Below, piece by piece: positions 1 to 29,882 of a DNA stretch of 55,110 nucleotides; the first letter of the stretch is position 1, and every line of letters starts with the position of its first letter. The translations under genes and the position numbers were made by a program. Below the pieces are notes generated by a model. It worked only from the letters and a program-made list of their open reading frames with translations. It was not told the origin of the DNA and did no database searches. Source of the DNA: a virus (taxonomy: Duplodnaviria > Caudoviricetes); IMG/VR virus record IMGVR_UViG_3300021197_001923, positions 1-55,110 of that record. The stretch is one strand, 5' to 3'.

Positions 1-1
1 C

Positions 2-5039: not shown

Positions 5040-5041
5040 AC

Positions 5042-8402: not shown

Positions 8403-8583
8403 AACCAACCTCGAAGTTTACTGCCCCCCGATCAAGCAATACGGCAACAACTTCAACACCAAATTAGCAGACGAAATAGAAAGCCTACCTTCGGAGTTCG
8501 ATGCAATTCCTGAAGCCCTTTCAAACTACACCAATCTGCGTGACCGCATCCGTCGATGTGAAACCGAGAGGGACAAATTGTAA
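8338..8583 (+). CDS. Putative o-spanin lipoprotein (Rz1-like)
   Basis: Lipobox-like LLIGC; CPP; overlaps the i-spanin. Confidence 0.65.
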   Translation: MKTFLLLIVAVLLIGCGETVYRTNLEVYCPPIKQYGNNFNTKLADEIESLPSEFDAIPEALSNYTNLRDRIRRCETERDKL

Positions 8584-11063
8584 TGGCCAAACAAAACACG
8601 GCGCCACGCTACACGTCGATTATGGGCCAGCCTCACATGTTGGCTTACATCAATTCCGATGAAGAAAAGTTGCTGCGATCCCGTGGCGGTATGGGCATTG
8701 CTGGTCCTGCTGGAATTAAAGCCTATCCACCTGGTTCCTCTGGCTATGGAAGCGGTGAAGGCACTGGTTACAGCGGCACAACTAATGACACCTCTGATAA
8801 CGATGATGGCTGGGGTGGCGGTTGGTCAAATAGCGGTGGATCGGTTGGCGGTACTTCTTATCCAGACTATGGCCCACCAGGGACTGGTTCGGGAGGCTCA
8901 GGTGGACCAGGAGGCGGTGGTGATGGCGTAGGCCAGCCTTACGTCCCGCCAAGTTCAGACAACGACGGCGGATCTGGTTCATCAGGATCTGGCAATACCA
9001 ATAATGATGACAATATTGTTGATAACAATAACGATGGCATCGATGACAATTCAATCTGGGGCAACGAAACGCCCTTTATTGACCCGTATGAATACAACGA
9101 CCTCATCATGGAAAAAAACCCAGATGGGACTTGGAAATATTCAGATACAGCTGCCTATGATTTATCAAGCATTGATCCCAATGAGGTTTCAGACTCCGAT
9201 TACCAGCGCTACGAGGCGCTAGAAAATCAGTACTACGTGGCGAACCCCACCAGCAACATCAGTGATACGCAATACACACAACAAAAAAAGGTCGCCCGCA
9301 TTTTAGGCGCATTTGTGGGGCCTTTAGGCTTAGGTTTTAACATCGTTACAGAAATGCAGCGTAAAGGCATTCTACCTGGCCCTATGGCTGGTGTGGAGTT
9401 TCTTCCACGTGAAGATGTGCCCGCTGTTACGAACTCTGATCGTGAAAATCGCATTAATGAAGTTTTAAATGACGAAAACCTAACAGATGAAGAGCAGCAG
9501 GACGCAGTTCAGGATATTTTAACTGAAGACGCCATCGCTGCCGGTGCCGAGAAATTAGCCGCAGAAATCAAAATTCTGCGTGATGGTGCTTATGGGGCGA
9601 ACGAAACCCTTAGCCCAGATGATGTTATAGAAGACCCGTCCGCAATCGTAGGTACAAACACGCTAGCTGATCAGGTGCCTACCATAGACGCCGATACCGA
9701 GGGCACAAACCTTGATGCCGACGCCTTTACGCAACCCGATGATGACATAGAGGCAAATGTAAGTACCGTTGGAGATAGTGATATTACCACGGCTTCTAGC
9801 GTCACAGATGGGACTGCAACTGGCTACACTGCCAATGAAGTTTCAGATAAACTTGATAGTGATTTTTATACCGCCGAGGGCGCCACGGGCGAAGTTAGCG
9901 ACGAGGCGGTGGTCGATGCAGAGCAGATAGACGTTGAGAAAACGGAGAAGGGCCTCAACGCCGTGGGTCGTGCTCTGAATGACTTTGCCCGTATTGATAT
10001 ATCTCGTGTGATTGACACCACTACCGTACAAGGAAAACTTCTTGCCGATAAGCTTGGTGAAGGCGGATATGTTGATAGTAAGGCTACGATCCTCGGCCAG
10101 ATGAAAATCATCTCTGATGAATTTAAGGACAGCAACGGTAATCCAAAAATACCTGCATGGGCTCAAGGTTTATCCCGCAACGTCAGCAAGACGATTGCGT
10201 TCAAAGGCATGTCTGGGACTGCTGCAACAGCTGCAGTTACAAATGCAATGATGGAAGCGTCGTTAGGTGTTGCTGAAAAAGAAGCAGCCTTTTTCCAGAC
10301 GTTAACTACGACAAATTTAAACAACCGGCAGGAAGCGGTAATCAATAAGGCAAACGTACTTGCCAACTTTGAAATGAAAAATCTTGATGCCCGTATGGAA
10401 GCGGCGGTGACGAATGCTCAATCATTTTTGAAAATGGATTTGGCAAATTTAGACCACAAGCAACAGGCTGAAATTGTAAACACGCAGGTCCGAGTGGATG
10501 CTTTGCTGGAAGATAGTAAGGCAGTAAATGCCGCACGTTTGTTTAGAGCCGAAGCTGAAAATGATTTTACAAAATACTACGACAACCTGAACGCTCAGAT
10601 TGAAATGCATACTGCAGAGCAAAAGAACGCAATGGAGCGGTTTAATACAGGTGAATTAAATGACAATGCAGAGTTCAATGCTACGCTGGAGCAAAGGCGT
10701 GAAGAGTTCTACAAGGACATGCAGTATAACGTTGAACTGGCTAATGCTCGCTGGCGTCAAGACGTTACTCTTAAAGAGACAGAAATGGCTTTTGAGGCTG
10801 CAAAGACAGACCTTGATAACTTAATCAGCATCAAAAAAGAGGCGCTTACCCAACTTTGGGACAGGGAAGACGCCTTGCTTGATTACACATGGAAAGCTGC
10901 TGAAAGCGAACTTAACCGTGACGTCGAACGGTACAAAGCTGACCGCAATTACGACGTGAACATGTCCAAAATTAACATGGAAAAAGACCAAGCCACGGGC
11001 GCTGCATGGTTCGAGGGCCTTAAATGGGTCTGGGATGTTGGCGACGGGCTGGACTGGTGGTGA
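8583..11063 (+). CDS. Internal virion (ejection) protein
   Basis: PHMLAYINSDEEKLLRSRGG N-terminal motif, Gly-rich linker, helical Q/N/A-rich C-terminus. Confidence 0.7.
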   Translation: MAKQNTAPRYTSIMGQPHMLAYINSDEEKLLRSRGGMGIAGPAGIKAYPPGSSGYGSGEGTGYSGTTNDTSDNDDGWGGGWSNSGGSVGGTSYPDYGPPGTGSGGSGGPGGGGDGVGQPYVPPSSDNDGGSGSSGSGNTNNDDNIVDNNNDGIDDNSIWGNETPFIDPYEYNDLIMEKNPDGTWKYSDTAAYDLSSIDPNEVSDSDYQRYEALENQYYVANPTSNISDTQYTQQKKVARILGAFVGPLGLGFNIVTEMQRKGILPGPMAGVEFLPREDVPAVTNSDRENRINEVLNDENLTDEEQQDAVQDILTEDAIAAGAEKLAAEIKILRDGAYGANETLSPDDVIEDPSAIVGTNTLADQVPTIDADTEGTNLDADAFTQPDDDIEANVSTVGDSDITTASSVTDGTATGYTANEVSDKLDSDFYTAEGATGEVSDEAVVDAEQIDVEKTEKGLNAVGRALNDFARIDISRVIDTTTVQGKLLADKLGEGGYVDSKATILGQMKIISDEFKDSNGNPKIPAWAQGLSRNVSKTIAFKGMSGTAATAAVTNAMMEASLGVAEKEAAFFQTLTTTNLNNRQEAVINKANVLANFEMKNLDARMEAAVTNAQSFLKMDLANLDHKQQAEIVNTQVRVDALLEDSKAVNAARLFRAEAENDFTKYYDNLNAQIEMHTAEQKNAMERFNTGELNDNAEFNATLEQRREEFYKDMQYNVELANARWRQDVTLKETEMAFEAAKTDLDNLISIKKEALTQLWDREDALLDYTWKAAESELNRDVERYKADRNYDVNMSKINMEKDQATGAAWFEGLKWVWDVGDGLDWW

Positions 11064-11067
11064 TCAA

Positions 11068-11244
11068 ATGAAATTACGCTCCGCAATCGAAAGATCAATT
11101 CGACAATTTTATAACGGTAACTTGCCTGATGAGGCCATCGATGCCTCTGAGGACGAATATATCTACACGCTCGAATACCTAGAAAACATTTTTAAAGAGC
11201 AAGACGAAGACAAAGCTGAGGAGGAAGACGACGATGAAGTTTGA
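11068..11244 (+). CDS. Small acidic hypothetical protein
   Basis: ATG just after the upstream stop; coupled to the next gene. Confidence 0.6.
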   Translation: MKLRSAIERSIRQFYNGNLPDEAIDASEDEYIYTLEYLENIFKEQDEDKAEEEDDDEV

Positions 11245-11761
11245 TGGTCCAATTCCTGGCGAGAACTTTACCTCTGAGGTTAAAAATTATCCTTGGCATC
11301 GCCCCGCCGATGAAACTGATTTTGTTCGTATAGTCGATAAATCTATTAAGAAAATGGCAACCAAGGAGCGCACTGGATTAATCCTGTCAGCGCTTGAAAG
11401 TGGTGAAACTATTCTGGATTTTGTAGCCGGCACAGCCCGTGTTTCAGTCGGTAACGGACGATTACCCATCGACATGGCGATATTAGCCGCTGGGCCCATT
11501 GCCAGATACATTGAGAGCCTCGCTGAAGGGGCTGGAATAGAATTTGAACGTGGTTGGGAGCAAGACCCACCAATGCTTACGTCAGCAAAGCTACGGGCCT
11601 ACGGAGGCACTGTGGCGGAAGTTGAAGAAAAAGACGCCGAAGAAACTTCTGAAACCGGCGATGATGCCAGCGGCTTGATGTCGTACTCTGATCAAACAGC
11701 GCCAGAGGATGAACAAGCAGCCATGCTGGGCTTTTTAGGCGAAGAGGAAGCTGAAGAATGA
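11234..11761 (+). CDS. Conserved virion-associated protein
   Basis: FDGPIPGENFT...YPWHRP N-terminal motif of podophage internal-protein clusters. Confidence 0.7.
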   Translation: MKFDGPIPGENFTSEVKNYPWHRPADETDFVRIVDKSIKKMATKERTGLILSALESGETILDFVAGTARVSVGNGRLPIDMAILAAGPIARYIESLAEGAGIEFERGWEQDPPMLTSAKLRAYGGTVAEVEEKDAEETSETGDDASGLMSYSDQTAPEDEQAAMLGFLGEEEAEE

Positions 11762-14001
11762 GCATGGTATTTGCCGGCTTTATGGCCGCACGAAAAGAAG
11801 ATCGTCTTCGTCGTGAAAAGGTTGAACTCGAAGAACAACGATTGCAGGACGATCGGGACTGGCAGTTAAAACTAAAAGACCTGACCAAATATGATGAGCA
11901 AAAGAAAAAAGACGACGAGCTCGCTAAAAATGTCGATTTTTTCATGTCGTCCTATAAAATTGAAAGCAAGTATCGCCCTTCTGTAGCGCAGTATATCGAA
12001 AGCGTTGGGCTTACAGACACCATGTCGATGTTTGACGATGGAAAGCTTAAATTTGATCCTGGCCGTAAATACGATGCCAATACCTTCATGCCAGAATTTG
12101 AGGAGCTCACAAGCAAGTATAACCTTCCTGAAGGTTATTTGGTCACCACAGGGATGCTTGAAAGCAAACTTAATCCTTTGGCTAAAAATCCAGATTCATC
12201 GGCATCTGGAATGTTCCAGTTTACGACTGATGTTGCATCGCAATACAAAGTAGATGTTAACGATTGGAAGTCATCAGCAGATGGCGCAGCACGACTAGCT
12301 CGTGATAACTTTAATACTCTGGCTCAGATGCTTGGCAGGGAGCCTACAGCAGCCGAATTGTATCTAGCACACCAGCAAGGTGCCACAGGGGCCGCAAACC
12401 TTCTTAAAAGCCCATCAAAACTCGCAGCTGATATTGTTGGCTCTGATGCCGTAAAATTAAACGGCGGCAAGCTGGATATGACCGCTGAAGAATTTTCCGA
12501 AACTTGGATTGATAAATACCACGGCGAAAGCCAGTCTGGTCTGGCGGCTCTGACAGCCACCCCAGCTAAAGTGACCACCGGTGACGCTGTAGATAAGCCA
12601 AAATCTTACGATGATTATGCCGAGAAAGCAGGCAATTACACCAATGCCCTGCGGCAGGTGAGCATCGCTGAGATGGATCAAGCACCGCAGGAGGTCGTAG
12701 AACGTCTGCAGAAGCTCGCCGATTCAATGTTGAAAAAAGAGATCCGTGAGAAAGAAATCGAAGCCGGTGTTAACGTCAAAGAAGTTATCGAAGCAGTAGT
12801 TACCAATGAAGACGGCAGCAAGCATGTATCAATGGTTACGTTTGATACTGATGGCAAAACTTACGTTGATACCAAAGAGGTGAACGCTCGGCGCATGAGC
12901 GAAACGGAAACTGAACAATATTTCAAGGTGCCCGCTCAGACGCAAAAAACTGCCCGTGATTACAGTAATGGCACAGTTGCTATGGCAGAGGGCCTACGCA
13001 ATGCACAACAACTTATGGACCTCGCTGAACGTCAGCCAGGCGTCATTTCGTTTGAAGGCGATCTGGCTCAATTTATTACTGGTACTGCTCGAAGCGGTGG
13101 CTCCATTCTCAGCGTTACAAACCGTCTGTTTGATAACAAAGACACCACTGAGGCTGAGGTATATTTAACGCAGGACGAGCTAGAAGCCGCACTACGTGAA
13201 GAAGGCGTATATACGGGCGAAAAGTCATTTTCTGAAATGAACCCTGAAGAGTTCGTGGACAGTTTGATTTCTTCCAACGTTCAATCGCTATCGCAAGACA
13301 CTACTGTGTTCGAGGCACAGATGATTGCATTAGCATTCCGTGTTGGTCGGTTAGAAGGGCAAAGTGGCAACGCTATGTCCAACAAAGACTTTGACCGCAT
13401 CATGGAAATGGTTGGGGATTCAAAAGGAGATGTTGGCGCCTTTAAGCGTATTCTTCACGAATACATGCGCTCTAAAATCAAATCTCATGATGACAGGGTA
13501 CAAACCTTTAATACTGTTGCCAGTGGTTATGGGCAGTTTGAAAAAGTTTATAAATACGTGCCCTATGAAAAGCCTAAAACCTTGGCCGATTATGTACTCG
13601 CCCGTGAGGATGATGAGCTAGCATCAGCGGTGGAACTATTCCGATCGCCATTAGCAAGCAGCGCACCTGTTTCGCAGGATGATACAGATGCTGCAACAGC
13701 AAACGCTGGGCTTTCTGACGATGACATGGGTTTGCCGCAAGAGCCAATAGAAGAAACATCCGCAGAAAATACTGTAGCCATACCTCTAGAAAACAAAGTG
13801 GAATGGGCAAATCAATTTGGCGGCACCGCTGATGAAAAGCGCATGACCGAAAATATGAAGAAGCTGTATGACTCCAATAAAGACGAAAATGTAGGAGAAA
13901 TTATCCTGCAATATCTCACCGATGAAGCAGCATATCTATCAAAACAACATGGCATCGAACTTACCGCCGATGACCTGATTGCATTCGCTGAGGGCAAATG
14001 A
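11758..14001 (+). CDS. Internal virion protein with lytic transglycosylase (SLT-like) domain
   Basis: LESKLNPLAKN...ASGMFQF...LYLAHQQG. Confidence 0.82.
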   Translation: MSMVFAGFMAARKEDRLRREKVELEEQRLQDDRDWQLKLKDLTKYDEQKKKDDELAKNVDFFMSSYKIESKYRPSVAQYIESVGLTDTMSMFDDGKLKFDPGRKYDANTFMPEFEELTSKYNLPEGYLVTTGMLESKLNPLAKNPDSSASGMFQFTTDVASQYKVDVNDWKSSADGAARLARDNFNTLAQMLGREPTAAELYLAHQQGATGAANLLKSPSKLAADIVGSDAVKLNGGKLDMTAEEFSETWIDKYHGESQSGLAALTATPAKVTTGDAVDKPKSYDDYAEKAGNYTNALRQVSIAEMDQAPQEVVERLQKLADSMLKKEIREKEIEAGVNVKEVIEAVVTNEDGSKHVSMVTFDTDGKTYVDTKEVNARRMSETETEQYFKVPAQTQKTARDYSNGTVAMAEGLRNAQQLMDLAERQPGVISFEGDLAQFITGTARSGGSILSVTNRLFDNKDTTEAEVYLTQDELEAALREEGVYTGEKSFSEMNPEEFVDSLISSNVQSLSQDTTVFEAQMIALAFRVGRLEGQSGNAMSNKDFDRIMEMVGDSKGDVGAFKRILHEYMRSKIKSHDDRVQTFNTVASGYGQFEKVYKYVPYEKPKTLADYVLAREDDELASAVELFRSPLASSAPVSQDDTDAATANAGLSDDDMGLPQEPIEETSAENTVAIPLENKVEWANQFGGTADEKRMTENMKKLYDSNKDENVGEIILQYLTDEAAYLSKQHGIELTADDLIAFAEGK

Positions 14002-17000
14002 TGGCTAGCTTTGATTACGAAAAATACGGACTAACACGGCCTGGGGAAGAAGCAACCAAAAGCAGTGAACCTGTAGATACGCAAACTGAAGATACCAGTG
14101 ATGCGTATTACGAGGCGCTAACTGCGGGGCAGAAGATTGCCTTCGATAGTATGGAGCCCGAACTTCAAAACATGTATCGTGAAAACCCTGTACTTACCGT
14201 CAGGGACGAAGGCGATACTAACCCCAGTTCAGCTGGTGAAGATGATGACGTCGTATTTGTAGGCACACGTCGTACCGTTGATGTAACCGACCAAATTAAG
14301 GACGTGGCAGAGGCTGCGGATGATAATACTTACGAAGCGTTATATCCAGATGCAGCGACCATAAAGCCATCTACTACTATCAAAGCAAAAGCATTTGATT
14401 TTATAAACCTATTGTTTCCCGATATGCCTGAGCAGGACGCACAAGCTGAGTTCAAAAAACAGTCCGCAGACAGAAAGAAGTTTCTGGAAGAAGCGCAGAA
14501 AGTTTACGAAGATATTGGCTTTGAGCGTGATGGTGAACGTGTGCTTGAGGAATGGGATGTAGATAAAGATGGAAATCTAACCCTTTTAAATACAACATTA
14601 ATTCCATCCCCCGATAGCACCGAATGGCAAAGGGTAATGACTAACACTGGGCGCAATATACAGGCGCAAGTGGGTGGCTTATTGACCGAAGGCGCTATTG
14701 CTTCTGAAAGTGACTTTGAGCGCAGCATACCAACCTTCGAGCAATCTAGCGGCGAAGACTTTGTGACGGATATATTGACGTTTGGTTTACCTGCCGTGGG
14801 TGCCCAGCGCCTTGTAAAAGGTACTCGTGCTTTAGCGGCAGCGACTATTATACCCCAGCAAGTATTGAATTTATCAAAAGTCACTGCTGCTACCCGCTAC
14901 CTAACAAATACATTGGGCGTTGCGTTTTCTGATGCGGTAATAGCATCCGGAGAAGATCAAGGATTTATTGATCCAAAGGTTATTGAACAGCGGTTTGGTA
15001 TGTCTTCAGAAGACGCTCGTGATGCAGCTTTATTTTTTGAAAGTATGGCATTTTCCGGTGCAATGGACGGAATTGCTTCAGTTGCCGGTATATTTGGCGG
15101 ATTTGGAAAAAGACGTGTAGAGGGTGTTCGAGCTTTTACCAGCAAAGACTTTATTCGCAATAAATCTGCACAAGGTGCAATGATGGGAGTGGTAAATTTA
15201 CTAGACCCATCAATAGCTAAGGCATCGAAGTTTAACCAAAAGCGTAAATTGGCTGCTATGGCAGATATGTTATCAAACAACGCAATGCTCAAGCTGTCAG
15301 CGGGTGATGTAGAGGCGTTAATACCCTCTGACTCAGCAACCGCTGTATTAAACGGCGCCAAAAAATATATCGCCAACACTCGGTCGGACATGCGCCGCAA
15401 GCTATCACAGGATGAGTTTTTTAAATACGTCGATGAAGAAGCTGGCAAGATGGCTTTAACGATGATTGAGATCGCCCGCACACGGGCTGGTGACCCCGCT
15501 ACAGTTGCTGCGCAGGGGCGGACCATGAAAGGGTTTGAGAACTTTTTAAACAAAGTTTCTGTCAGGAAAATCCCCGAAGGCCAATCAATACAGGAAGCAC
15601 TAGAAGGCTCGATTAATGACCTTGTCAGCTTGCGTAATAGCCAAGTAGATGATGCAGCTTCAGATGTCGTTATAACATCTGTAGCCAAGGACCAAGCGCA
15701 GGACGCTGTCGATAACTCCATCATGCAGGTTCCAGAGTTACAGAAACTCATGGAAGGGACACCAGACGTATTTAATTCTCAAGCATTTTATGACCGCCTA
15801 ACTAAGTCTATGACTGGGCTGGAAGGCTCAGGGTCTTTGCTTGAGCAGTACAAAAAGACGTGGGATGAAGTTCAAGCCGCTTATAAGGCTGTGCCAAACG
15901 TACCAATTGATCTGAACCTGTTTAAGTCGGAGCTTGATATAGCTTTAGCATCGGCAGGACCCTTAGACACAAGTGGGCCTGCGATCCGCAAAGTATTAGG
16001 TGACATCGAAAAGATATTTAAACCTAAAAAGATCGGTTCGGAGCAAGTTGTAGATCCGCTTGGAGACCCCCGTTCACCAGCTACTCGTGACATCATGCAA
16101 ACCAAAGAAGACTTGATGGAAGGTTTGTCGGAAATCGGTTTTCAGGATTTGTTAAAGTTTAAGCAAAGCTTAGAGCAGTCGATCAGCAAAATGCCTGACA
16201 GCGAGGCTCGAAGAAGTCTAGAGCAATTTGCAAGGCACATTACTGACAGTGATGCGGGTCAGTTAGCCTTTGTGGCCAACAGCGTTGATAGCGAGGCCGC
16301 AGAAGCAGCACAGACGGCGATCAACAAGTTTATTGATGCCAAAGGTAAGTTTGAAAACTCTACCCCGATGCAGCAATTTTCGCAGGGGGCCAGAGTGGTC
16401 ACAGGTAAGGGTATGAATACAGCAGTATCAGGAGATGGTGCTATGCGTGGGATGCCTGACCTGCAAAAGTTCTCGACCACAGACATGCCTGGATTGCTTG
16501 TTTCGGACAAATCTGGGGCTTGGATGCGTAATTATGTGACGGCGATGGGTGGAGGCGACAATGCTGCACTACAGCCGATGCGTGAACTTGCTGAAGCACA
16601 GGCGCAGTATGAGCTTGTACAGGCTATGCGCAGCGGCAGTAGTGATCAGGTCAATCAGATATTTGATGTGCTTAATGGCAACCGCTCAACGCTCGACGCT
16701 CTTAATTCAACGTTAGTAGATGATTTGCAGAAAGTCGCAAAAGATTTGCGAATAAAGCAAACTGAATTGGGCGACGATCTGGCCGGTGCAGATGATGCTT
16801 TAAGGTCCGCCAAAGAGCGCTTGGCAAAAGCGGAAAACAGCATTCTTGAAAGCTTTATTTCTGATAATTTTCCAGACATGCCGGTATCAAATCCTAAAGA
16901 AGCGTTGACGCTTATGATGACCGACAGCGTTGATGGTGCAAATAAAATTGCCAGTTTGCTTGATGAGGTTAGTAAACTGCCTCCAGAGCAAGCTATGGCT

Positions 17001-17684
17001 GTCAGAGGGGCTATGAAGGGGGCCGTAGTCGATAGCCTCGTCACAGAAGTATTTGGTGCCACACCAATGTCAGTGGTGGGTGATGCGGCCGCATTTAATA
17101 CAAAGATAGGACGTTTAAAAAACGTATTGGATCGCAAGGGTAATGATTTTCTTGGCGGCCTAAGAGTCATGTTCAAGGATGATCCAGAGGCCCTGCAGGG
17201 TGTTGAATTGGCTTTGACGGGCCTTATGCGCCAAAACGTGCCTTCACGCATCAAAATCAATCAGGCGGGATCTGACACAGCCTTCAATCAGCAAATGATC
17301 GATGAAGTTAGTGACAGCGTATCGGCTGGGGTGCTTTTAATATTTGGATACATGACACCGGCGGGTGCCTTGGCTCGCAATGTATCTCGTGGTCGGATCA
17401 AAGAAATGGAAGGATTAGCCAAAACTGTTGGTGATGAAACACTCGCATTGATTATTTCCAACCCAGTAGAATTTGGGCAGATGGTACGAGATGTCTCAAA
17501 AGCACAAAGCAGAGGCGCCAAGGAAGCAATCGCCAGAACATATGTTGAAACTGTAACGCATGGATTGGGCTATCAATTGCGTATCGATGAGACTGGAGAA
17601 AAACCTGTGCCTTTGGATCAGCAAATGATTGACCTTGGCGGACAAGCTCAACAAGTTGTGAATGAGGTTATACCCCAGCAGTAA
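13998..17684 (+). CDS. Large internal virion (ejection) protein
   Basis: 1228 aa helical protein ending the structural operon. Confidence 0.7.
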   Translation: MMASFDYEKYGLTRPGEEATKSSEPVDTQTEDTSDAYYEALTAGQKIAFDSMEPELQNMYRENPVLTVRDEGDTNPSSAGEDDDVVFVGTRRTVDVTDQIKDVAEAADDNTYEALYPDAATIKPSTTIKAKAFDFINLLFPDMPEQDAQAEFKKQSADRKKFLEEAQKVYEDIGFERDGERVLEEWDVDKDGNLTLLNTTLIPSPDSTEWQRVMTNTGRNIQAQVGGLLTEGAIASESDFERSIPTFEQSSGEDFVTDILTFGLPAVGAQRLVKGTRALAAATIIPQQVLNLSKVTAATRYLTNTLGVAFSDAVIASGEDQGFIDPKVIEQRFGMSSEDARDAALFFESMAFSGAMDGIASVAGIFGGFGKRRVEGVRAFTSKDFIRNKSAQGAMMGVVNLLDPSIAKASKFNQKRKLAAMADMLSNNAMLKLSAGDVEALIPSDSATAVLNGAKKYIANTRSDMRRKLSQDEFFKYVDEEAGKMALTMIEIARTRAGDPATVAAQGRTMKGFENFLNKVSVRKIPEGQSIQEALEGSINDLVSLRNSQVDDAASDVVITSVAKDQAQDAVDNSIMQVPELQKLMEGTPDVFNSQAFYDRLTKSMTGLEGSGSLLEQYKKTWDEVQAAYKAVPNVPIDLNLFKSELDIALASAGPLDTSGPAIRKVLGDIEKIFKPKKIGSEQVVDPLGDPRSPATRDIMQTKEDLMEGLSEIGFQDLLKFKQSLEQSISKMPDSEARRSLEQFARHITDSDAGQLAFVANSVDSEAAEAAQTAINKFIDAKGKFENSTPMQQFSQGARVVTGKGMNTAVSGDGAMRGMPDLQKFSTTDMPGLLVSDKSGAWMRNYVTAMGGGDNAALQPMRELAEAQAQYELVQAMRSGSSDQVNQIFDVLNGNRSTLDALNSTLVDDLQKVAKDLRIKQTELGDDLAGADDALRSAKERLAKAENSILESFISDNFPDMPVSNPKEALTLMMTDSVDGANKIASLLDEVSKLPPEQAMAVRGAMKGAVVDSLVTEVFGATPMSVVGDAAAFNTKIGRLKNVLDRKGNDFLGGLRVMFKDDPEALQGVELALTGLMRQNVPSRIKINQAGSDTAFNQQMIDEVSDSVSAGVLLIFGYMTPAGALARNVSRGRIKEMEGLAKTVGDETLALIISNPVEFGQMVRDVSKAQSRGAKEAIARTYVETVTHGLGYQLRIDETGEKPVPLDQQMIDLGGQAQQVVNEVIPQQ

Positions 17685-17758
17685 AGAAAAACCCTCGTAA
17701 CTTTCGCTACGAGGGCCTCATATCTAACTAAACGACAAGGTGACCAAACCCTGTGTCC
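17683..17758 (-). ncRNA. Candidate trans-acting antisense sRNA-A (~75 nt)
   Basis: Own promoter; 5' hairpin with UUUGGUCA loop; terminator CCCUCGUAGC-GAAA-GUUACGAGGG-UUUUU; complementary blocks at 20448-20491 and 26264-26294. Confidence 0.7.
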
Positions 17759-17764
17759 AATGTT

Positions 17765-17800
17765 TATATAGCAATACGCTAGCACTTAATAAAGTTTTAA
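17765..17800 (-). promoter_or_regulatory. sRNA-A promoter overlapped by a CtrA-type box
   Basis: TTTATT-17-TATATA with TGn; TTAA-N7-TTAA at 17786-17800. Confidence 0.5.
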
Positions 17801-17927
17801 ATGCACCAAACTACGCAAAAGTTTACATATTTATATAGCTGTATACACGTTTTTGATTATTGACGATTACAAGTGCACTACAAATTAGTTTAGAAGCATT
17901 TAGGTACATTTTATGTATATTTTACAG

Positions 17928-17962
17928 ACGCTTTTGCTGAACTACAGCAGGAGCGTTTTTTT
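17928..17962 (+). terminator. Intrinsic terminator
   Basis: ACGCTTTTGCTG/CAGCAGGAGCGT stem followed by a T run. Confidence 0.65.
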
Positions 17963-17988
17963 GTGATTTTTCGCTTTTCTGGCTAATT

Positions 17989-18010
17989 TTGTCACATCAC
18001 TGTTACAAAA
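17989..18010. repeat. 22-bp element, exact inverted copy at 33567-33588
   Basis: TTGTCACATCACTGTTACAAAA. Confidence 0.9.
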
Positions 18011-18231
18011 GGCTGGCAAATCGAAGGGAGCATCACAAGTCGTCGGATACAGCAACTAATCCACAAAAACATACAATTTGCCCCACAGCTGTAGATTCGG
18101 ATATTGTGAGAGCACAGTCTCGTAATGAAGAGACTTAATCGTGGAGTGCAGTCTGACCAGCCGCTTATACTCCGCAAATTTGAACTTTTGAAGTCCACAT
18201 GAGGGTTTCATATTTAACTAAAGGGATGTCT

Positions 18232-18459
18232 ATGAAAATGACACCACACATGGCCATTGAAAAGGGCCAGAAACTACTCGAACAGTCAATAAAAATGGAA
18301 GAACAAGGTCAGGCACTTATCGATGCCGGCTTTGCAGATGGTCGAGATCAACTGGTTTACGAAAGTGCCTTCGGCGGCTGGAATGTCGATGACGTTCACA
18401 ACACCGATGATTATCACTACGATCCATCAATCGATTTTTTGATTACAAATGCAGCTTAA
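18232..18459 (+). CDS. Hypothetical protein
   Basis: AAGGGA RBS; followed by a terminator. Confidence 0.55.
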   Translation: MKMTPHMAIEKGQKLLEQSIKMEEQGQALIDAGFADGRDQLVYESAFGGWNVDDVHNTDDYHYDPSIDFLITNAA

Positions 18460-18461
18460 TT

Positions 18462-18486
18462 AAGGCCCCTTCGGGGGCCTTTTTTA
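18462..18486. terminator. Terminator between convergent genes
   Basis: AAGGCCCC-TTCG-GGGGCCTT-TTTT. Confidence 0.85.
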
Positions 18487-19776
18487 TGCCCGTGGATATT
18501 GTAGCTTCAACATTGTTTTCACCGCTACATCCCAATCGATTTTACCTGAATATCCACCGTATGTTTCATCTGGCACTGCATGACCAATAATACGTGCCGC
18601 TAAGTTTTGTTCTACTTGAGCGTTTTCAAAACGATTTGCCATGGTGGCTCGAAAGCTATGGAACGCATGGCGCTTGGTCTCGAAACCGAGTTTAGACTTG
18701 AGCCTATTAAACCGATGGCTAATGCCTTTGGTACGAGTTTTATATTTGTTGTTAGATGACTCTCCTGAAATCAAAAAGCCATCTGTGCTTGTTTGCTTTA
18801 AGCGTTCAACCATTTGTTGAATATCAGGATGGATCGGTATTTCACGCTCGCCATTATAGGTTTTTGAGTCCTCTACCACAAAACGGTCGTCTAAAACCGA
18901 GGTTACCTTCATGTTGCCGATTTCGTTTAAACGCATCCCAGTGTACATGCCCAGCTTAATAATATCGATTAAGTTTTGATCGTCCTTTTCAACAGCAGCC
19001 TCCAGCAGCATGTAGCATTCTGCTACCTCGTAGGGTTTATAAGTGACGTTCGTACTCTTTTTTCTAGCAGCTTTTGTTCGATTGACTGGGGGTAGTATAG
19101 ATGATCCCACCGCTAAATTTGTGGCCTCAGTATATTTCCCCTCACAATACGCCCAAAGTTTATTCACGTACCCAAAGTTTTTGTTCACTGTTCGGCGTGT
19201 CCACTCTGGGTAACCGTTACGACCTTGCAGCATATCATCCACCCAAATTTTGAGCTCTGACTTTTCTATCGTTTCAAAAAACGGAAAGCGCTTGCAGAAA
19301 TTACCCAGCAAAAACGTTACAGCGCCATCTTTGCCTGAAGGCACGTACCCATGCTGCGTCACCCACTCATCCACGTACTTGGTGGTAGGAGTATAGGCTT
19401 TTGTTGCCATCCCAAATGCTCGCACCTTGTCCTTCGTTTTTTCGTCCAATTCTGCGCCAGGTCGCAGGGTGTGCGCCACCGTTTCAAAGGCACTCTCGCC
19501 GCCGCCAAGTTCTTCAAATAGCCTTCTGGATTCTTCAGCAGTTGCGTCGAGGTCAACAATTTCGCCTCGCTCTTTTGCCCGTGCAGCTTTGATTAAACTT
19601 TTCCAGCGATGGACATGCGGCAGCTTTCTAATTTCAGCCTCGGCAAAGTTATGGGTCTCCAGCGTTTGGATGAACTTTCTTTTGCCAAAAGTGGCGTGTA
19701 AATCTTTCGGCACTTGCATCACAGCGTAGTAAGTTTTGAACTGTGTGATGAGATATTGCCCGTTAGCTTTAGTCAT
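18484..19776 (-). CDS. int: Tyrosine integrase with DUF6538-like N-terminal domain
   Basis: YYAVMQVPKDL...LET N-terminus; catalytic TGMR, SKT, HSFR, GH, Y. Confidence 0.92.
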   Translation of the reverse strand: MTKANGQYLITQFKTYYAVMQVPKDLHATFGKRKFIQTLETHNFAEAEIRKLPHVHRWKSLIKAARAKERGEIVDLDATAEESRRLFEELGGGESAFETVAHTLRPGAELDEKTKDKVRAFGMATKAYTPTTKYVDEWVTQHGYVPSGKDGAVTFLLGNFCKRFPFFETIEKSELKIWVDDMLQGRNGYPEWTRRTVNKNFGYVNKLWAYCEGKYTEATNLAVGSSILPPVNRTKAARKKSTNVTYKPYEVAECYMLLEAAVEKDDQNLIDIIKLGMYTGMRLNEIGNMKVTSVLDDRFVVEDSKTYNGEREIPIHPDIQQMVERLKQTSTDGFLISGESSNNKYKTRTKGISHRFNRLKSKLGFETKRHAFHSFRATMANRFENAQVEQNLAARIIGHAVPDETYGGYSGKIDWDVAVKTMLKLQYPRA

Positions 19777-19792
19777 GCATATCCTCAGTTTT

Positions 19793-19991
19793 TATACCTA
19801 GGTTTATACCTAGGTTTTTATACCTATGCAACAAAAAGACCATATTTTATTGGTTTTTTATGGACATTATGAACTTAGGGATAGCTTCCCGCTACCCGCT
19901 CCAAGATATTTTTATCCAATAAAATCAGTTACTTAAACAAACTGACTAGGATAATTATACCTAGGTTTATACCTAGATATTTATACCTAGG
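19793..19991. other. attP: tRNA-Gly-like 3' core TTCCCGCTACCCGCTCCA (19886-19903) flanked by six TATACCTA(GG) arm repeats
   Basis: Repeats start at 19793, 19805, 19819, 19956, 19968 and 19982; adjacent to the integrase start. Confidence 0.85.
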
Positions 19992-20008
19992 TTTTGATCT
20001 ATGCATAC

Positions 20009-20048
20009 AAAAAGGCCCCCAGAATAAACCAGGGGCCCTCTTGTTTTG
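20009..20048. terminator. Terminator, probably bidirectional
   Basis: AAAA-GGCCCC...GGGGCC-CTCTTGTTTT. Confidence 0.6.
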
Positions 20049-20066
20049 CTTCGGAATCGCAGTTTT

Positions 20067-20318
20067 TTACACGTCGAACTTAATTTGATTGCGAGTATAT
20101 GCCGACGAATAGTCGCTGGCATTGTCTGAACTCGAACCAACATAACGATGTTCAATCATTTCGGTGCTGCGAAAATCCCATGATGTAATCCCATAGTCGC
20201 CGCCGATTACGCAATCTATCGGCCCAGTTGCCTTTTTGATTGCGTCGTCTAAAGCGTTTTTAATTCGGATCGCATCTTCGAGGTATATTGTACCTTCAAA
20301 GCGATTGTTTTGAACCAT
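20067..20318 (-). CDS. Hypothetical 83-aa protein with long structured leader
   Basis: GGAAGGA RBS before ATG at 20318; shorter than the ORF-track call. Confidence 0.6.
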   Translation of the reverse strand: MVQNNRFEGTIYLEDAIRIKNALDDAIKKATGPIDCVIGGDYGITSWDFRSTEMIEHRYVGSSSDNASDYSSAYTRNQIKFDV

Positions 20319-20653
20319 ATAGTTCCTTCCATGCCTTGGGTGGGAGCACCCGTTAAAGTTTGTTTTGCGTATTCGTACCGTTTTCCGCTCGCCAGCTCCT
20401 TTTTCATTTGCTGGATGCAACAATGTTTCGCTGCATCCAGCAATCACTTTGGTCACACGTTTATCGCTCGTCAGCATAGATATGAGGCCCTGAAGTAAGC
20501 CATCGCTCTACGAATGGCAGCGGGTATCTCATGCAGCCCGTTATGTTGCGCTGCGTATCAAAACATTAACCTAAAACGTTCGACCAAAAAATAGCTGGAA
20601 GGGATTTATTTTGAAATCTTTTCTCTTGACATCGGTATTCTCAACGGATCAAC

Positions 20654-20668
20654 GTTCGCTTTTCGTTC
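20654..20668. promoter_or_regulatory. Alphaproteobacterial LexA (SOS) box
   Basis: GTTC-GCTTTTC-GTTC, intergenic; TTGACA at 20626. Confidence 0.7.
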
Positions 20669-20849
20669 TAAACCGCTGATTTGCTTGAAAAAAGCTGCTC
20701 CTGACAAGTTAGGACAACATGTAGTGGTGCGTGTCACTAACTGCATATATGCGGTATATGCAAAAGGTGACTCCCAATTGTAAATTTAGAAAGTTTATTT
20801 TTGCCCAAATTGAACCATTTTGCCCCGCATCGCACCGAATCGGCCCGAA

Positions 20850-21284
20850 TCACTCTGGCGGTTTTGCCAGAAGGTTGATGATCTGAATAGCTTGCTTTGA
20901 GACATCATAGAATTTTTCACCGACAGGCACCTTAACGTTTGGTATTACCTCAATGGGAGCGGCCAGCACTGTGTGACGACTAATAATTGCTGCGTGGGTC
21001 ATGCCTTGGTTTAGCACAAAAAAATGGCATGGGCGTTCTGTGAACTTTTTCTTTCGATACGGAATCCGCAGTGTGGGAAAATTGAACTCAGGCCCATGCC
21101 ATCCTAATTTCACTTCAACTTCACAGCCAAAGGATTTGCCCTTGCCTCTCACCAGCAGGTCAACGCCGAAATGGTCAGGGTTTTCGTTGCACTCATAACC
21201 CAACTGTTCCCAAAACTTTTGGGCAGTGAATTTTGCAGCATTATCGTATTGCTCGTAAACATCTCGCTCGAATTGTTTAAGCAC
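20850..21284 (-). CDS. PD-(D/E)XK nuclease-fold protein
   Basis: GVDLLV...EVEVK motif. Confidence 0.7.
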   Translation of the reverse strand: MLKQFERDVYEQYDNAAKFTAQKFWEQLGYECNENPDHFGVDLLVRGKGKSFGCEVEVKLGWHGPEFNFPTLRIPYRKKKFTERPCHFFVLNQGMTHAAIISRHTVLAAPIEVIPNVKVPVGEKFYDVSKQAIQIINLLAKPPE

Positions 21285-21447
21285 GGCGCCGCTCCTGGTT
21301 TTTCAGGTATGCGCAGTTCCAGCCTCGAATCCATTCACGGGCGTAAAATGATTGCGGCCTATATGGGCACCGATCATCGGTTAAAAAAGCGTTCCAGCCA
21401 ACTTGGTAGGGCCGCTCTGCGGGGAAAAAACGTTTCATGTACTGCAT
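21277..21447 (-). CDS. 56-aa Rmf/CrpP-fold-like protein (not in the ORF track)
   Basis: MQYMKRFF...YQVGWNAF...RCPY...REWIRGW; GGAGAG RBS; coupled to the next gene. Confidence 0.7.
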   Translation of the reverse strand: MQYMKRFFPAERPYQVGWNAFLTDDRCPYRPQSFYAREWIRGWNCAYLKNQERRRA

Positions 21448-21477
21448 CCATATTCTCTCCCCCCATCATGGTTTGAG

Positions 21478-23160
21478 CTAGACGCCGCAGCTGCCACCTG
21501 TGCCGCTGATGTCGCAAATATCGTGAGTTTCTATTGCTTCATCAAATTCCTCGCCAAGCTTGGCCACAGCCTCGCTGTATGGGACTGATGTAAGCGGTTG
21601 GCCACCACGGGAACCGTCTGGGTAACAAGTGAAGCCACGAAGCCCGTGAGCATATTTGGCAAGGGTTTCGGCAAACTTTGGCACGGTGTCTTCGTTATTT
21701 AACTTGGTGCCCCACGCCGGCAGATTGATCGTTGAGGAAATCGACATATCAACGTAACTTTGTACATCACTTTGAAATTTCATGCGCCGTTCATAATCGC
21801 TGGCCAAATCCAAAGCGCTCTCAATTGTATCGGGAGAAGCTCCATAGCGATCAATCAGTTGCTGCGCAGCGGAATCGACAACGTATTGGTAAACCCAGCG
21901 ACTATTACCTTTCAGGTAACGCCTTTTATAAGCAACGGCAAAGATAGGCTCAACACCAGTAGAGGTACCAGCCAATATGCCAATCGAACCTGTCGGGGCG
22001 ATGGCTCGATTAGCAACAGGGCGAGTGATGCTAAAGCGATCCGCAGTTTCTTTGCTAACTTTGTCAGAAATACCTTCGTAAACCGAAAGCCAATTATGTA
22101 GTTCAGGGGTAACTTCATAGCGTGATCCTCTTTGTATAAGCCACTCGTGGATGCCCATTAAGCCCAAGCCCAAGCGACGGTTTTTCGCACGGGTCAATTC
22201 AACTTGGGGGTAAGGCAGCTTTGCTTTCATTGTTCCGCAAAGCAAAAATTTTGTGGCCAGTTCTACGACTTCCGCCATTTCGTAGATGTCTTCGATACGG
22301 CCCATGTTAATGCTGCCTAAGTTGCAAACATCACTGTCATCAGCGGACGTAATTTCCGTACAAGCGTTTCTTAACGTTTCGTTTTCTTTGTCGAAGAAAT
22401 TGAAGCTAAAACCAGGTTCGGCGGTCTTCATGGCTTGGTGGACATTCTCCAAAAATACATCGCCAACATCGCCAGTTTTGTAATAATTAAGCAGCCATTC
22501 GGTGTCATAATTCACGCTGATATTGGTCATATCTAGAGGGGCAGGAAAATTGAAATCGTGCTGCTTAATATCCCATAAGCTTTGGCCCGTATTTCCCACC
22601 ATCATAGACTGCCAATCCTTGGCGTGAAGGAAATCCAGTATATCGCCGTGCTTCCAGTTCAAGCTAGCGTAAATGGCCGATCTACGAGAACCGCCTTGCA
22701 TCACCTTCGACCCAATAGAATTGATCATCTGCATCTTTGGGATCGGGCCTGAAGCTGTGCCGCCAGTTTGATGAATTGGAGATCCAGCGGGGCGGTAAAC
22801 TGAATAATCGATGCCGATTCCGCCGCCAGTCATGAGGCAGCTTTCCGCCTTCCAACTAAGGTTTGCCCAGTCTTCACGAGTGTCTTCTTCGGCTTTCAAC
22901 AAAAAACAATTATTGAAAAATTTATTCGAGCGACCAGCGTAATAAAGATACCGGCCCCCAGGGATGAATTTCAAATCCCTTATGAACTCGTACAAGCGCT
23001 GGACATCATCCTTTTGCAAAAACTCGCTACATACATCTTCGACCAGAGTTGATGCCAAAGCATCCCAAGTCTCGGCCCCCTCATGGGCATATTTATGATT
23101 AAAAATGTCTTCAGAAAATTTGCTCCGAAACATTGGGTTGAGGTTGCTTTTAAAACTCAT
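21478..23160 (-). CDS. nrdJ: Ribonucleotide reductase, class II (B12-dependent)
   Basis: GGRY, NNC, NACTE, CNLGSIN, LGLG and APTG motifs; C-terminal Cys pair; no beta subunit gene. Confidence 0.85.
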   Translation of the reverse strand: MSFKSNLNPMFRSKFSEDIFNHKYAHEGAETWDALASTLVEDVCSEFLQKDDVQRLYEFIRDLKFIPGGRYLYYAGRSNKFFNNCFLLKAEEDTREDWANLSWKAESCLMTGGGIGIDYSVYRPAGSPIHQTGGTASGPIPKMQMINSIGSKVMQGGSRRSAIYASLNWKHGDILDFLHAKDWQSMMVGNTGQSLWDIKQHDFNFPAPLDMTNISVNYDTEWLLNYYKTGDVGDVFLENVHQAMKTAEPGFSFNFFDKENETLRNACTEITSADDSDVCNLGSINMGRIEDIYEMAEVVELATKFLLCGTMKAKLPYPQVELTRAKNRRLGLGLMGIHEWLIQRGSRYEVTPELHNWLSVYEGISDKVSKETADRFSITRPVANRAIAPTGSIGILAGTSTGVEPIFAVAYKRRYLKGNSRWVYQYVVDSAAQQLIDRYGASPDTIESALDLASDYERRMKFQSDVQSYVDMSISSTINLPAWGTKLNNEDTVPKFAETLAKYAHGLRGFTCYPDGSRGGQPLTSVPYSEAVAKLGEEFDEAIETHDICDISGTGGSCGV

Positions 23161-23167
23161 GGCAACC

Positions 23168-23593
23168 TCACGCTAAATCAGACAGATCGGGCGCTTCGTA
23201 ATTAGGCCCTTTCATAATTTTGCCGTCCTTCCGAACAATCGGATTTCCGGTATCATCCAGTTTGCTCATGTTACTTGCATGTACACGGCGGAATGCGGCA
23301 TCTAAATCCCAGCCAAATGAAGCAGCGTAGCCATAGGCAACGTAGAGCACGTCACAGAGCTCTTTTACGACCTCCTCAGATGTCTCCGCCGCACAAACTT
23401 CATCAAACTCCTCTTGCAGCAATTTTAAGCGCAATCGGTCCAGATCCGAGTTCTGGATGTAAGGGTGATCTAACGAATGCCCCATCACACGATGAAACTG
23501 TCGTACCATCTCCATTGGTGTTTTCCCGATGTAAGTATCAGGGTTACGCAGGGCGTCATTACCCTCGTCATAATATTCAAATGCCACGTCCAT
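23168..23593 (-). CDS. MazG-like / PRA-PH nucleoside triphosphate pyrophosphohydrolase
   Basis: LLQEEFDE...KELCDVLYV...VHASNMSK...DGKIMKG. Confidence 0.88.
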   Translation of the reverse strand: MDVAFEYYDEGNDALRNPDTYIGKTPMEMVRQFHRVMGHSLDHPYIQNSDLDRLRLKLLQEEFDEVCAAETSEEVVKELCDVLYVAYGYAASFGWDLDAAFRRVHASNMSKLDDTGNPIVRKDGKIMKGPNYEAPDLSDLA

Positions 23594-23879
23594 TTTCGGC
23601 CTCTTCAAGTTTTTCGATTAATCGGTTGATGTACCAAGCAGCCTTTTTCAAATCCTGAACGGGGTTGTGCTTGTAGGGCCAACGCCAAAGATATTTGAGT
23701 GCATTTTGCCAAAGGTACGATTGATGTGCGGGGATCTCTGAACCTTGCACCATGGCTTCCATGGCATCGATGCATTCCAGTTTTCCGTTGCGATAATGTT
23801 GCGGCTTATCTACGGCCGCTTCCGAGCGTAGTTCCGCCAAACTTCTAGTGTCCAGCTTGGACAAATCCCACTTCGCCAT
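23577..23879 (-). CDS. DUF3310 (T7 gp1.7-like nucleotide kinase) protein
   Basis: VDKPQHY...ECIDAM...NALKYLWR...DLKKAAWY. Confidence 0.88.
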   Translation of the reverse strand: MAKWDLSKLDTRSLAELRSEAAVDKPQHYRNGKLECIDAMEAMVQGSEIPAHQSYLWQNALKYLWRWPYKHNPVQDLKKAAWYINRLIEKLEEAENGRGI

Positions 23880-24202
23880 CAGTGAAACTTCTTTTTGATT
23901 GGCACCACTTTTTCATTGTTGGCGAACATCTCTTTAAAGTCATCGTCCCAATCAATTTCGCCCTCTTCATCCAATGCTTGACCAACGGTCATCATTATTC
24001 GATGCATGGCGCCAACAGTGCCCAACACTTCAGGGTGAAACTTCAAAACGAAGTGCAAACCGGCGAGCATATCAATCCAGCCACTGGCCGCTTCTCTATC
24101 AAAATCAGGGTGAAAATTATACGCAGTGGTGACACCCATTTCACCGTCTTCACCACAATCAATTTCAACGGCAATTTGGTTATCTTGTAGTCTGTTATCC
24201 AT
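23879..24202 (-). CDS. Hypothetical protein
   Basis: Coupled ORF; NEKVVPIKKKFH end. Confidence 0.7.
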   Translation of the reverse strand: MDNRLQDNQIAVEIDCGEDGEMGVTTAYNFHPDFDREAASGWIDMLAGLHFVLKFHPEVLGTVGAMHRIMMTVGQALDEEGEIDWDDDFKEMFANNEKVVPIKKKFH

Positions 24203-24554
24203 CAGGGTCTTTCCTGCTAATAAGTTCAAAAAAGTGATCCATATCGATCACAGCTAAAGGTTTGCGGCGGTCAGCTTTTATGATGACCAGCGGCTCGGCA
24301 CCGGAGGGGCAATTTGCAACGCATTGATCCACAAATTTGTAAATGGCGATGTTTTTCAATGCCTTACATTCAATCGAATATGGAAACAGCCGGCGGGCTT
24401 GTGAGGCCATTTGGATGTCTTCACCAGACTGGCCCATTCCCGTAGAGCGCACGTCTTGGTCCGTCAGCATTGGAAACAGAGATAATATTTTGTCTCTGGC
24501 TTGCTGTTGAAGACGACGCCCCTTTGCCTTTGCAGACGAAGGTTTGATAGCCAT
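24195..24554 (-). CDS. Holliday-junction-resolvase-like PD-(D/E)XK endonuclease
   Basis: KAKGRRLQ...GEDI...SIECK...EPLVI. Confidence 0.8.
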   Translation of the reverse strand: MAIKPSSAKAKGRRLQQQARDKILSLFPMLTDQDVRSTGMGQSGEDIQMASQARRLFPYSIECKALKNIAIYKFVDQCVANCPSGAEPLVIIKADRRKPLAVIDMDHFFELISRKDPDG

Positions 24555-26250: not shown

Positions 26251-26299
26251 AAAATTTCCTTTGAACAGAGGTTTGGTCATGCTGTTTAGCTAGAGGTTT

Positions 26300-26343
26300 C
26301 GTATATCCGAATCTTGTACCCAAGTCAACTATAGTGCACTATA
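26300..26343 (-). promoter_or_regulatory. Promoter of the ssb-to-RNR operon with palindromic operator
   Basis: TTGACT-17-TATACG; TATAGTGCACTATA abuts the -35; GANTC in the spacer. Confidence 0.75.
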
Positions 26344-26357
26344 TATTGCACAATAAA

Positions 26358-29844: not shown

Positions 29845-29868
29845 CGTATCTCCAACTTATGTGCAAAT

Positions 29869-29882
29869 TATAGTGCACTATA
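29869..29882. promoter_or_regulatory. Palindromic operator copy
   Basis: TATAGTGCACTATA upstream of the helicase. Confidence 0.7.

Follow-up and report, generated by a model that had tools for sequence, protein, structure and literature searches.

At the point where the early and late genes of an HMO-2011-type phage converge lies a short minus-strand unit, which raises the question of whether it encodes a regulatory RNA and which genes such an RNA would control. The phage is represented by the IMG/VR record IMGVR_UViG_3300021197_001923, the whole of which, a single contig of 55,110 bases, was analysed and is called the window here. The unit, termed small RNA A (sRNA-A), is probably a trans-acting antisense RNA of about 76 nucleotides (nt) that has its own promoter, pairs through two blocks with at least four early leaders, and most likely represses early genes. 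The original prediction, made from the letters of the window, had proposed a trans-acting RNA with multi-block pairing to distant leaders. This proposal held, since the structure of the RNA covaries between phages and the targets covary with the sRNA of their own genome. The covariation of sRNA and targets is the strongest evidence for the case, and sRNA-A most likely represents a previously undescribed RNA that regulates early gene expression.

Predicted pairing of sRNA-A with early leaders

The predicted transcript of sRNA-A runs on the minus strand from 17758, the putative +1, to 17683 in the U tail, with both ends predicted from the promoter and terminator only. Its 5′ part is hairpin 1 (17758-17730), the hexaloop of which, UUGGUC (17747-17742), forms together with its flanks pairing block A. 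The hairpin is followed by an A/U-rich single-stranded linker (17729-17720), the core of pairing block B, and by an intrinsic terminator (17719-17683) with 14 base pairs, a GAAA tetraloop, and the U tail. The putative promoter (17793..17765, minus strand), of the extended -10 type, consists of a -35 element TTTATT at 17793-17788, a 17-nt spacer, TG at 17773-17772, and a -10 element TATATA at 17770-17765. Promoter, loop hairpin and GAAA-loop terminator, as originally listed for a minus-strand unit of ~75 nt, are all present. The fold of sRNA-A has a minimum free energy of -34.6 kcal/mol (z = -5.5), and none of 200 shuffled sequences folded equally well.

The complement of the loop plus flank, TGACCAAA, occurs four times on the early strand of the window, and each occurrence has a second, linker-complementary block 4-20 nt upstream. 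The sites are located 2.7, 8.5, 15.6, and 17.1 kb from the sRNA. Two targets in antisense orientation, T1 and T2, had been described before; both were found, and both are parts of minus-strand transcripts. The set is larger and has four members, including T3 (33403-33372) and T4 (34874-34845).

Target T1 (26294-26265, minus strand) is in the leader of the gene after the DNA polymerase, the start codon of which is at 26250-26248. Its block B (26294-26284) is 11 nt long with one G:U pair, and its block A (26280-26265) 16 nt long with one bulge, ending 5 nt from the Shine-Dalgarno (SD) sequence GGAA (26259-26256). The letters GTTTAGCTAGA of the second block are at 26284-26294 as originally described, and those of the first block, ACAGAGGTTTGGTCA, were found at 26265-26279, one base away from the 26264-26278 given before. 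The predicted T1 promoter (minus strand) contains TTGACT at 26328-26323, a 17-nt spacer, and TATACG at 26305-26300, placing the putative +1 at ~26293. The designation of the gene behind T1 as ssb found no support: the product has no SSB signature and no Pfam or PHROG match, and Atlas gives only a Pam3_Gp34/DUF5895 lead.

Target T2 (20491-20448, minus strand) lies upstream of an open reading frame (ORF) of ~83 residues and of the second integrase gene, Int2, from which it is ~680 nt away; the proximity of this ORF to attP, a part of the original prediction, is putative. It is composed of the exact 15-mer TAGATATGAGGCCCT (20491-20477) as block B, for which the pairing region of the sRNA reaches into 17712-17719, and the 9-mer TTTGGTCAC (20456-20448) as block A, with CGTTTA at 20458-20463; all three elements are present as originally described. 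Target T3 (minus strand) is located at the 5′ end of the transcript of a 333-residue-long protein encoded after the first integrase, Int1, and combines CTCATATC at 33403-33396 (block B) with TGACCAAA at 33379-33372 (block A). The 333-residue protein has a DUF932-like lead, and its gene is followed by that of the primase. The predicted T3 promoter (minus strand) has TTGACA at 33438-33433, a 16-nt spacer, and TATAAC at 33416-33411, with a putative +1 at ~33404. Target T4 (minus strand) is the translation start of Int1, where block B CATATCTA (34874-34867) and block A AUGACCAAA (34853-34845) flank the SD sequence GGAGA (34863-34859), and block A covers the AUG of Int1. The promoter of T4 is predicted at 34909-34881 (minus strand).

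The paired 8-nt blocks of T3 and T4 span 32 and 30 nt, which is the span of the matching letters of the sRNA. The +1 positions predicted from sigma-70-like hexamers coincide with the start of the upstream block in T1, T3, and T4, and these three leaders are essentially unstructured (minimum free energies of -2 to -6.5, z ~0). The four two-block sites of the window compare to a mean of 0.10 when the hexaloop was fixed and its flanks were shuffled (0/300 shuffles reached four), and the opposite strand contains none. The energies of sRNA duplexes with the four leaders correspond to z = -4.1 to -7.6 relative to shuffled sRNA.

The letters of the sRNA and its targets differ between phages in a coordinated manner. 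In the related phage G004, the loop flank is UUUGGUCGC instead of the UUUGGUCAC of the window, and the Int1 start and post-polymerase leader contain GCGACCAA(A) instead of AUGACCAAA. The G004 leaders additionally contain CTGTATCTAG and CTAGCT, which match the linker of the same phage; the homologous Int1 start contains CTGTATCTAG together with GCGACCAA. Phage G001 has the loop AUUGGUCUCC and a very different linker, GCUGGAUAAG, and its T1-like post-polymerase leader carries GGAGACCAAT and CTTATCCAGC. T3-class leaders, those of the gene after Int1, were located in the relatives by synteny. They are complementary to their own sRNA over 19 nt in G004, 18 nt in G001, 10 nt plus GACCA in G003, and 8+8 nt in the window. 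When the sRNAs were swapped in a 4x4 scheme, own duplexes with the T3-class leaders had energies of -34 to -42 kcal/mol, whereas those with foreign sRNAs ranged from -17.5 to -33. For the post-polymerase (T1-class) leaders the values were -37 to -45 for own and -16.6 to -32 for foreign sRNAs, and G003 has no site there.

Further sites extend this series. A T2-like site is retained in contig L007 and in G004 at an unchanged distance from Int2, and TGTATCTA or GCTGTATCTA within it fits their TAGATACA(GC) linkers. L069, which has an unrelated linker, contains matches of 13 and 14 nt in two leaders, and L077 contains matches of 14 and 18 nt that end just before the SD sequence or AUG. In the cultured CRP isolates, complementary blocks are found where the helicase and primase genes start. 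CRP-3 has 11 nt at helicase position -24, CRP-738 has 10 nt across the AUG of the helicase and 9 nt at primase position -17, and CRP-212 has 9 nt each at +16 of the primase and -16 of the helicase. Ranking of annotated starts by energy z-scores placed the primase or helicase at the top in CRP-212 and CRP-738, and other genes in CRP-3 and CRP-235.

Counting two-block sites for nine genomes against nine sRNAs gave a diagonal sum of 13, in which one G004 site was counted twice owing to two overlapping loop words; only 12 of 362,880 permutations reach this sum (P = 3.3e-5 for own versus swapped sRNAs). The covariation of sRNA and target boxes in related phages, by which the original prediction could be checked, was found. 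Among 32 genomes (325,159 nt), seven exact complementary blocks of at least 13 nt were identified with the phage's own sRNA, compared to a mean of 0.14 for shuffled sRNAs (at most one in 100 shuffles) and 0.42 for the sRNAs of other phages. The two opposite-strand matches of at least 13 nt in this count are same-sense partial copies of the sRNA, 0.4-1.2 kb upstream, in G003 and G001/L082.

The sRNA-A family and its genomic setting

The four cultured CRP-3-like phages and contig L007 share the architecture of sRNA-A, located at the corresponding junction. The CRP copies are preceded by a terminator, and a promoter of the type TTGACC-17/18-TATAAT is found at the equivalent place. In metagenome contig L002, the Int2 of which is 88% identical to that of the window, the promoter hexamers, TG, loop, and terminator are kept, and the spacer and stems differ; its terminator loop is GUAA, which is still a GNRA loop. 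A covariance model, R1, was built from seven sequences. It matches the window sRNA-A with 81.6 bits (E = 9e-21) and detects the element at the same junction in CRP-235, CRP-212, CRP-738, CRP-3, L002, and L007. Among IMG/VR records related by DNA polymerase and searched whole, three of five were positive.

The class II ribonucleotide reductase (RNR) gene was used as a further anchor (window 21478-23160) and identified 565 IMG/VR viral contigs with a related RNR, which indicates that the lineage is common in public viromes. The best 80 of these contigs are 77-86% identical, and 31 of the 80 contain an R1 match, which in every case follows RNR and shares its strand; the 31 loci represent 27 distinct sequences, and three are contigs already present in the earlier set. 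The family was detected in 10 phages and in 31 of the 80 IMG/VR loci. The R1 search detected no member in HMO-2011, CRP-1, or three distant IMG/VR loci (L037-L039), and two weak matches of 21-22 bits in HTVC033P.

Compensatory changes were found in 10 of the 18 base pairs in the seven-sequence alignment and in 15 of 18 in a ten-sequence alignment (hairpin 1, 5/6; terminator stem, 10/12). The ten-sequence alignment was fitted to R1, which somewhat favours the structure; 95.4% of its cells are paired, a value reached by 0/500 shuffles, whereas slid controls gave 46-58%. All of the first 10 phages have the same hexaloop, UUGGUC, as do 20 of the 27 further distinct sequences; the other seven have UUGGUU-type loops or AUUAGUCAC. 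No Rfam family reaches its gathering score anywhere in the window, and the four weak Rfam matches at E <= 1 in 17500-20900 are all outside the sRNA. Exact words of 22-23 nt from the sRNA were unmatched in IMG/VR and in GTDB genomes. Members of the R1 family combine a hairpin with a UUGGUC-type loop, a linker, and a terminator, and are located where the early and late blocks meet in CRP-3-like phages of the HMO-2011 type.

The structural genes of the window are on the plus strand (1-17684 and ~37400-52200), and the early block is on the minus strand from ~36 kb down to 17.7 kb; sRNA-A occupies the exact junction of the early block with the end of a 1228-residue tail-region gene. The early block is headed by the CRP-type tyrosine integrase Int1 (34853-33765, minus strand) and contains, on the same strand, the genes for the 333-residue protein, a Toprim protein, a DnaB-like helicase, a family-A DNA polymerase with a DnaJ-type insert, a Cas4-like exonuclease, a MazG-like protein, and the RNR. 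Int2 (19776-18484, minus strand) is a second integrase, of the DUF6538 type. The phage thus has two tyrosine integrases, and Int2 is part of a ~2.8-kb module located between a 144-residue gene and the sRNA; G004 likewise has both integrases, and Int2 is inverted in G001.

The nearest kin of the phage are CRP-3-like roseophages. Its DNA polymerase shares 56-60% identity with the enzymes of Roseobacter phages CRP-235, CRP-212, CRP-738, and CRP-3, and 35-37% with those of HMO-2011 and its closer kin. HMO-2011-type phages are described in PMC9038755 as being among the most abundant marine phage groups, and PMC6918029 describes host integration for CRP-3. A megablast search of 14000-30000 against phages returned a single 82-nt match. 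With Int2 as the anchor, no IMG/VR relative and four distant partial matches in GenBank phages (24-27% identity) were obtained; the 136-residue ORF was unmatched in phages, and the C-terminus of the tail protein in IMG/VR. A scan of GTDB genomes with the DNA polymerase yielded unrelated Bacteroidales loci only and no prophage copy, and ARAGORN detected no tRNA in the window.

Beyond the sRNA gene, at 17926..17968 on the plus strand, is a late-operon terminator, and such a terminator lies 44-200 nt past the 5′ end of the sRNA in 8 of 11 phages. The mRNA of the tail gene would therefore end with a full antisense copy of the sRNA. In CRP phages, the hairpin loop of the late terminator contains the -35 element TTGACC of the sRNA.

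In three lineages, same-sense partial copies of the sRNA loop or linker precede the actual gene by 0.4-2.9 kb: at 16587 and 17292 on the early strand of G003, at 22682 in G001 and 6218 in L082, and probably, as a weak copy, at 20598-20565 (minus strand) in the window. Gapped local alignment of the sRNA region with 19780-20900 did not score above shuffles in either orientation, so the copy in the window is recognized by eye and by analogy with G003 and G001. The copies look as if cassettes, including the Int2 module, had been inserted into or beside the sRNA gene. Directly after the sRNA terminator, contig L002 contains a ~240-base-pair cassette that carries a small reverse-strand ORF and is enclosed by two near-identical direct repeats of 37 nt (1807-1843 and 2084-2120).

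A palindrome, TAGTGCACTA (often TATAGTGCACTATA), occurs seven times in the window, which 0/100 shuffles reach. Six copies are exact (26332-26341, 29871-29880, 30989-30998, 33443-33452, 34936-34945, and 35220-35229) and one has a single mismatch (17871-17880). It is located just upstream of the -35 elements at the T1, T3, and T4 promoters and also over a -10-like TATAAT before the helicase gene; G004 has it as well, and the early regions of CRP isolates lack GTGCAC. The palindrome is probably the operator of a DNA-binding regulator.

Three RNA-library runs from two studies, which were found using this stretch (query 17500-18500) and may contain DNA, include contigs over 18044-18199, 18052-18254, and 18171-18348. 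These contigs cover the upstream region and first half of an 86-residue acidic ORF (18199-18459, plus strand) that is convergent on Int2. A 32-nt piece, 18055-18086, is contained within an unrelated 1718-nt contig in two of the runs and is a candidate attP core for Int2. A stretch resembling a tRNA T-arm (GGGATCGAACC, early strand) is present upstream of the primase region in L024 (~2935-2962), L073 (~1258-1308), and L074 (~1208-1258). It fits an attP core derived from a tRNA 3′ end, as CRP-3 has been reported to integrate into tRNA-Met.

Proposed mechanism and competing explanations

Based on the pairing sites and their covariation, a mechanism of sRNA-A action can be proposed. A sigma-70-type promoter at the convergence point of early and late genes would drive the synthesis of sRNA-A. 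The 5′ hairpin would expose the hexaloop UUGGUC, which may contact GACCAA in an open leader, and the linker and 3′ stem half would then pair with the first ~30 nt of early transcripts. Blocking of ribosome loading and lowered mRNA stability are the most likely effects, because the duplexes cover or abut the SD sequence or AUG, or the extreme 5′ end. A block of ribosome loading would be expected for duplexes over the AUG or the SD-AUG spacer, as at T4, the Int1 start of G004, the helicase starts of CRP-738 and CRP-212, and the L077 sites. For T1, T2, and T3, an effect on mRNA stability or on standby binding is more likely. As a result, integrase and replication functions would be held down. No terminator-like site was listed on the minus strand between the T1, T3, or T4 boxes and the start codons in a pattern scan of 17500-37400, which argues against attenuation of the P4 type. 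Since the late-strand terminator lies beyond the 5′ end of the sRNA, late transcripts should be antisense to the whole sRNA, and they could neutralise it.

We infer from the sequences that sRNA-A is transcribed, that it represses rather than activates, and that Hfq or an RNase is involved; it may serve in lysogenic immunity or in the shut-off of early genes during the lytic cycle. Among the contig pieces listed for four RNA-library runs compared to 17001-37000, none covers 17683-17758; since small RNAs are usually lost from such contigs and the libraries may contain DNA, this has no bearing on transcription either way. We speculate, as a possibility that we hold with considerable doubt, that the lysis/lysogeny decision of CRP-3-like phages is largely RNA-run. 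A constitutive sRNA would silence all early units, including both integrases and the replication operons, and together with the convergent late anti-sRNA would form a bistable RNA-RNA switch.

Several observations weigh against repression of early leaders by pairing. There is no two-block site above the threshold in G003, CRP-738, or CRP-3, and CRP-235 has no complementary block of at least 9 nt. In the wider set, 14 of 24 loci have no chain, and the total of 14 chains is a modest excess over 5.5 for shuffled sequences and seven for the opposite strand. The same-sense partial copies indicate that recombination has duplicated pieces of the locus, so some of the similarity could be historical and not selected. 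The sites are not unique by energy alone: among minus-strand windows, T2 ranks first, T3 third, and T1 fifth by raw duplex energy, T4 is outside the top 12, and GC-rich non-seed windows score alike. Duplex scans with windows of 50-60 nt were noisy and did not single out the sites; exact-block tests were used instead. Eight nucleotides of the T2 15-mer would pair with a part of the sRNA that is inside the terminator stem, and this stem would need to open. T2 and T3 precede the likeliest start codons by distances of tens to more than 100 nt, and a simple block of the ribosome-binding site does not explain them. The promoters, +1 positions, and gene starts on which the sites are placed are predictions.

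The alternative that survives best, although we consider it unlikely, is that sRNA-A is a genuine small RNA whose main targets are host mRNAs, or which activates the leaders of the phage, for instance through protection of their 5′ ends. A self-contained pair of sRNA and target would need far less conservation than the hexaloop shows; however, the presence of several phage targets in each genome would be enough to constrain the loop. The position of pairing in T2 and T3, at the extreme 5′ end or far upstream of start codons, fits effects on stability as well as repression, whereas a duplex on the SD-AUG spacer or the AUG, as at T4, the G004 Int1 start, the CRP-738 and CRP-212 helicases, and in L077, normally represses translation.

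Improbable in our view is the explanation that the element is a mere terminator or 3′ untranslated region of the early (Int2) operon, or a hot spot of cassette insertion, and that the leader matches are remnants of duplications. Its location at the end of the early block, the same-sense partial copies upstream of the gene, and the repeat-flanked cassette directly after the element in L002 are as such an origin would leave them. However, remnants would decay independently, and the leaders instead track each phage's own sRNA. Furthermore, the CRP phages and the window have a separate preceding terminator followed by a promoter with conserved hexamers, and hairpin 1 with its invariant loop, not just the terminator, is kept across phages with 56-75% identical DNA polymerases.

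Least probable of all is that the repeated blocks are DNA sites, such as operators or recombinase arm sites, for a protein acting at early promoters, with the 75-nt unit as one more copy and RNA pairing irrelevant. The T1, T3, and T4 blocks do start at the predicted +1, a frequent place of repressor operators, the separate palindrome of these promoters points to control by a protein, and the locus has a history of recombination. However, the sites without exception face one way, on the strand that is transcribed, and in 8/9 genomes no site is found on the opposite strand. The targets match differing, overlapping parts of the sRNA (nt 26-36, 33-42, 33-47, and 21-39) with variable spacing and bulges and without a single consensus. 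The stems of the unit covary in the manner of an RNA, and the unit has a GNRA loop and a U tail; the CRP phages have the sRNA without the palindrome.

If sRNA-A acts on the leaders as proposed, it would be a rare phage sRNA with several self-targets, a case backed by compensatory changes that arose naturally in many genomes. Through such a conserved RNA and its regulon of early leaders, a first handle on early-gene control, and possibly lysogeny, in HMO-2011-type phages would be gained. The proposal is directly testable, as CRP-3, CRP-212, CRP-235, and CRP-738 and their hosts are in culture.

Comparison with known RNA regulators

The literature searched contains no report naming HMO-2011 together with an sRNA, and the accessible text of the two papers describing these phages, PMC9038755 and PMC6918029, mentions no small RNA or repressor. 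The original prediction had placed sRNA-A among RNA repressors of the C4/CI type. The likeness extends to the two-box mode of pairing, whereas membership in either family is contradicted by the lack of an Rfam match, the own promoter, the location outside the target leaders (2.7-17 kb away), and the lack of an attenuator. The most fitting classification of sRNA-A is a new family of trans-acting sRNAs encoded by phages, defined by model R1.

The C4 RNA of phages P1 and P7 pairs through two boxes with the ribosome-binding region of its target and is excised from a transcript that it shares with the target. According to PMC8198154, C4 is situated in the operon of its target, c4-icd-ant, and is needed for the full repression of ant. 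Like C4, sRNA-A would be a small RNA repressor of a phage that uses two separated single-stranded blocks in the manner of the two boxes at the ribosome-binding region; the likeness is functional only. C4 acts beside a protein repressor, which is a further parallel. sRNA-A departs from C4 in having a promoter of its own, a distance of 2.7-17 kb to its targets, matches to at least four transcription units, a hairpin loop as one of the blocks, and no Rfam match.

CI of P4 and CB of N15 provide RNA immunity; they are processed from the leader that they control and cause premature termination of transcription. sRNA-A resembles them in that the RNA would pair with short repeated boxes in early leaders and hold down replication genes. 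It differs from them in sequence and structure, in its independent promoter, in the lack of a listed terminator-like site downstream of T1, T3, and T4, and in sites that overlap the SD sequence or AUG.

DicF is a trans-acting sRNA of the Hfq type with a Rho-independent terminator. sRNA-A shares with Hfq-type trans-acting sRNAs the own promoter, the length of ~75 nt, an A/U-rich stretch beside a U-tailed terminator, and short imperfect pairing near several translation starts. Unlike in these sRNAs, the putative targets are the phage's own early operons, and the pairing is bipartite, involving loop and linker. The YUNR loop motif is typical of fast-pairing antisense RNAs such as CopA/CopT, RNA-OUT/RNA-IN, and Sok/hok. 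The loop start U-U-G-G of sRNA-A fits YUNR, and as in these systems the loop would meet an unstructured 5′ end or start of the target before a second stretch extends the duplex. Whereas these antisense RNAs are encoded in cis, with full complementarity to one target each, sRNA-A is trans-encoded, partly complementary, and has several targets.

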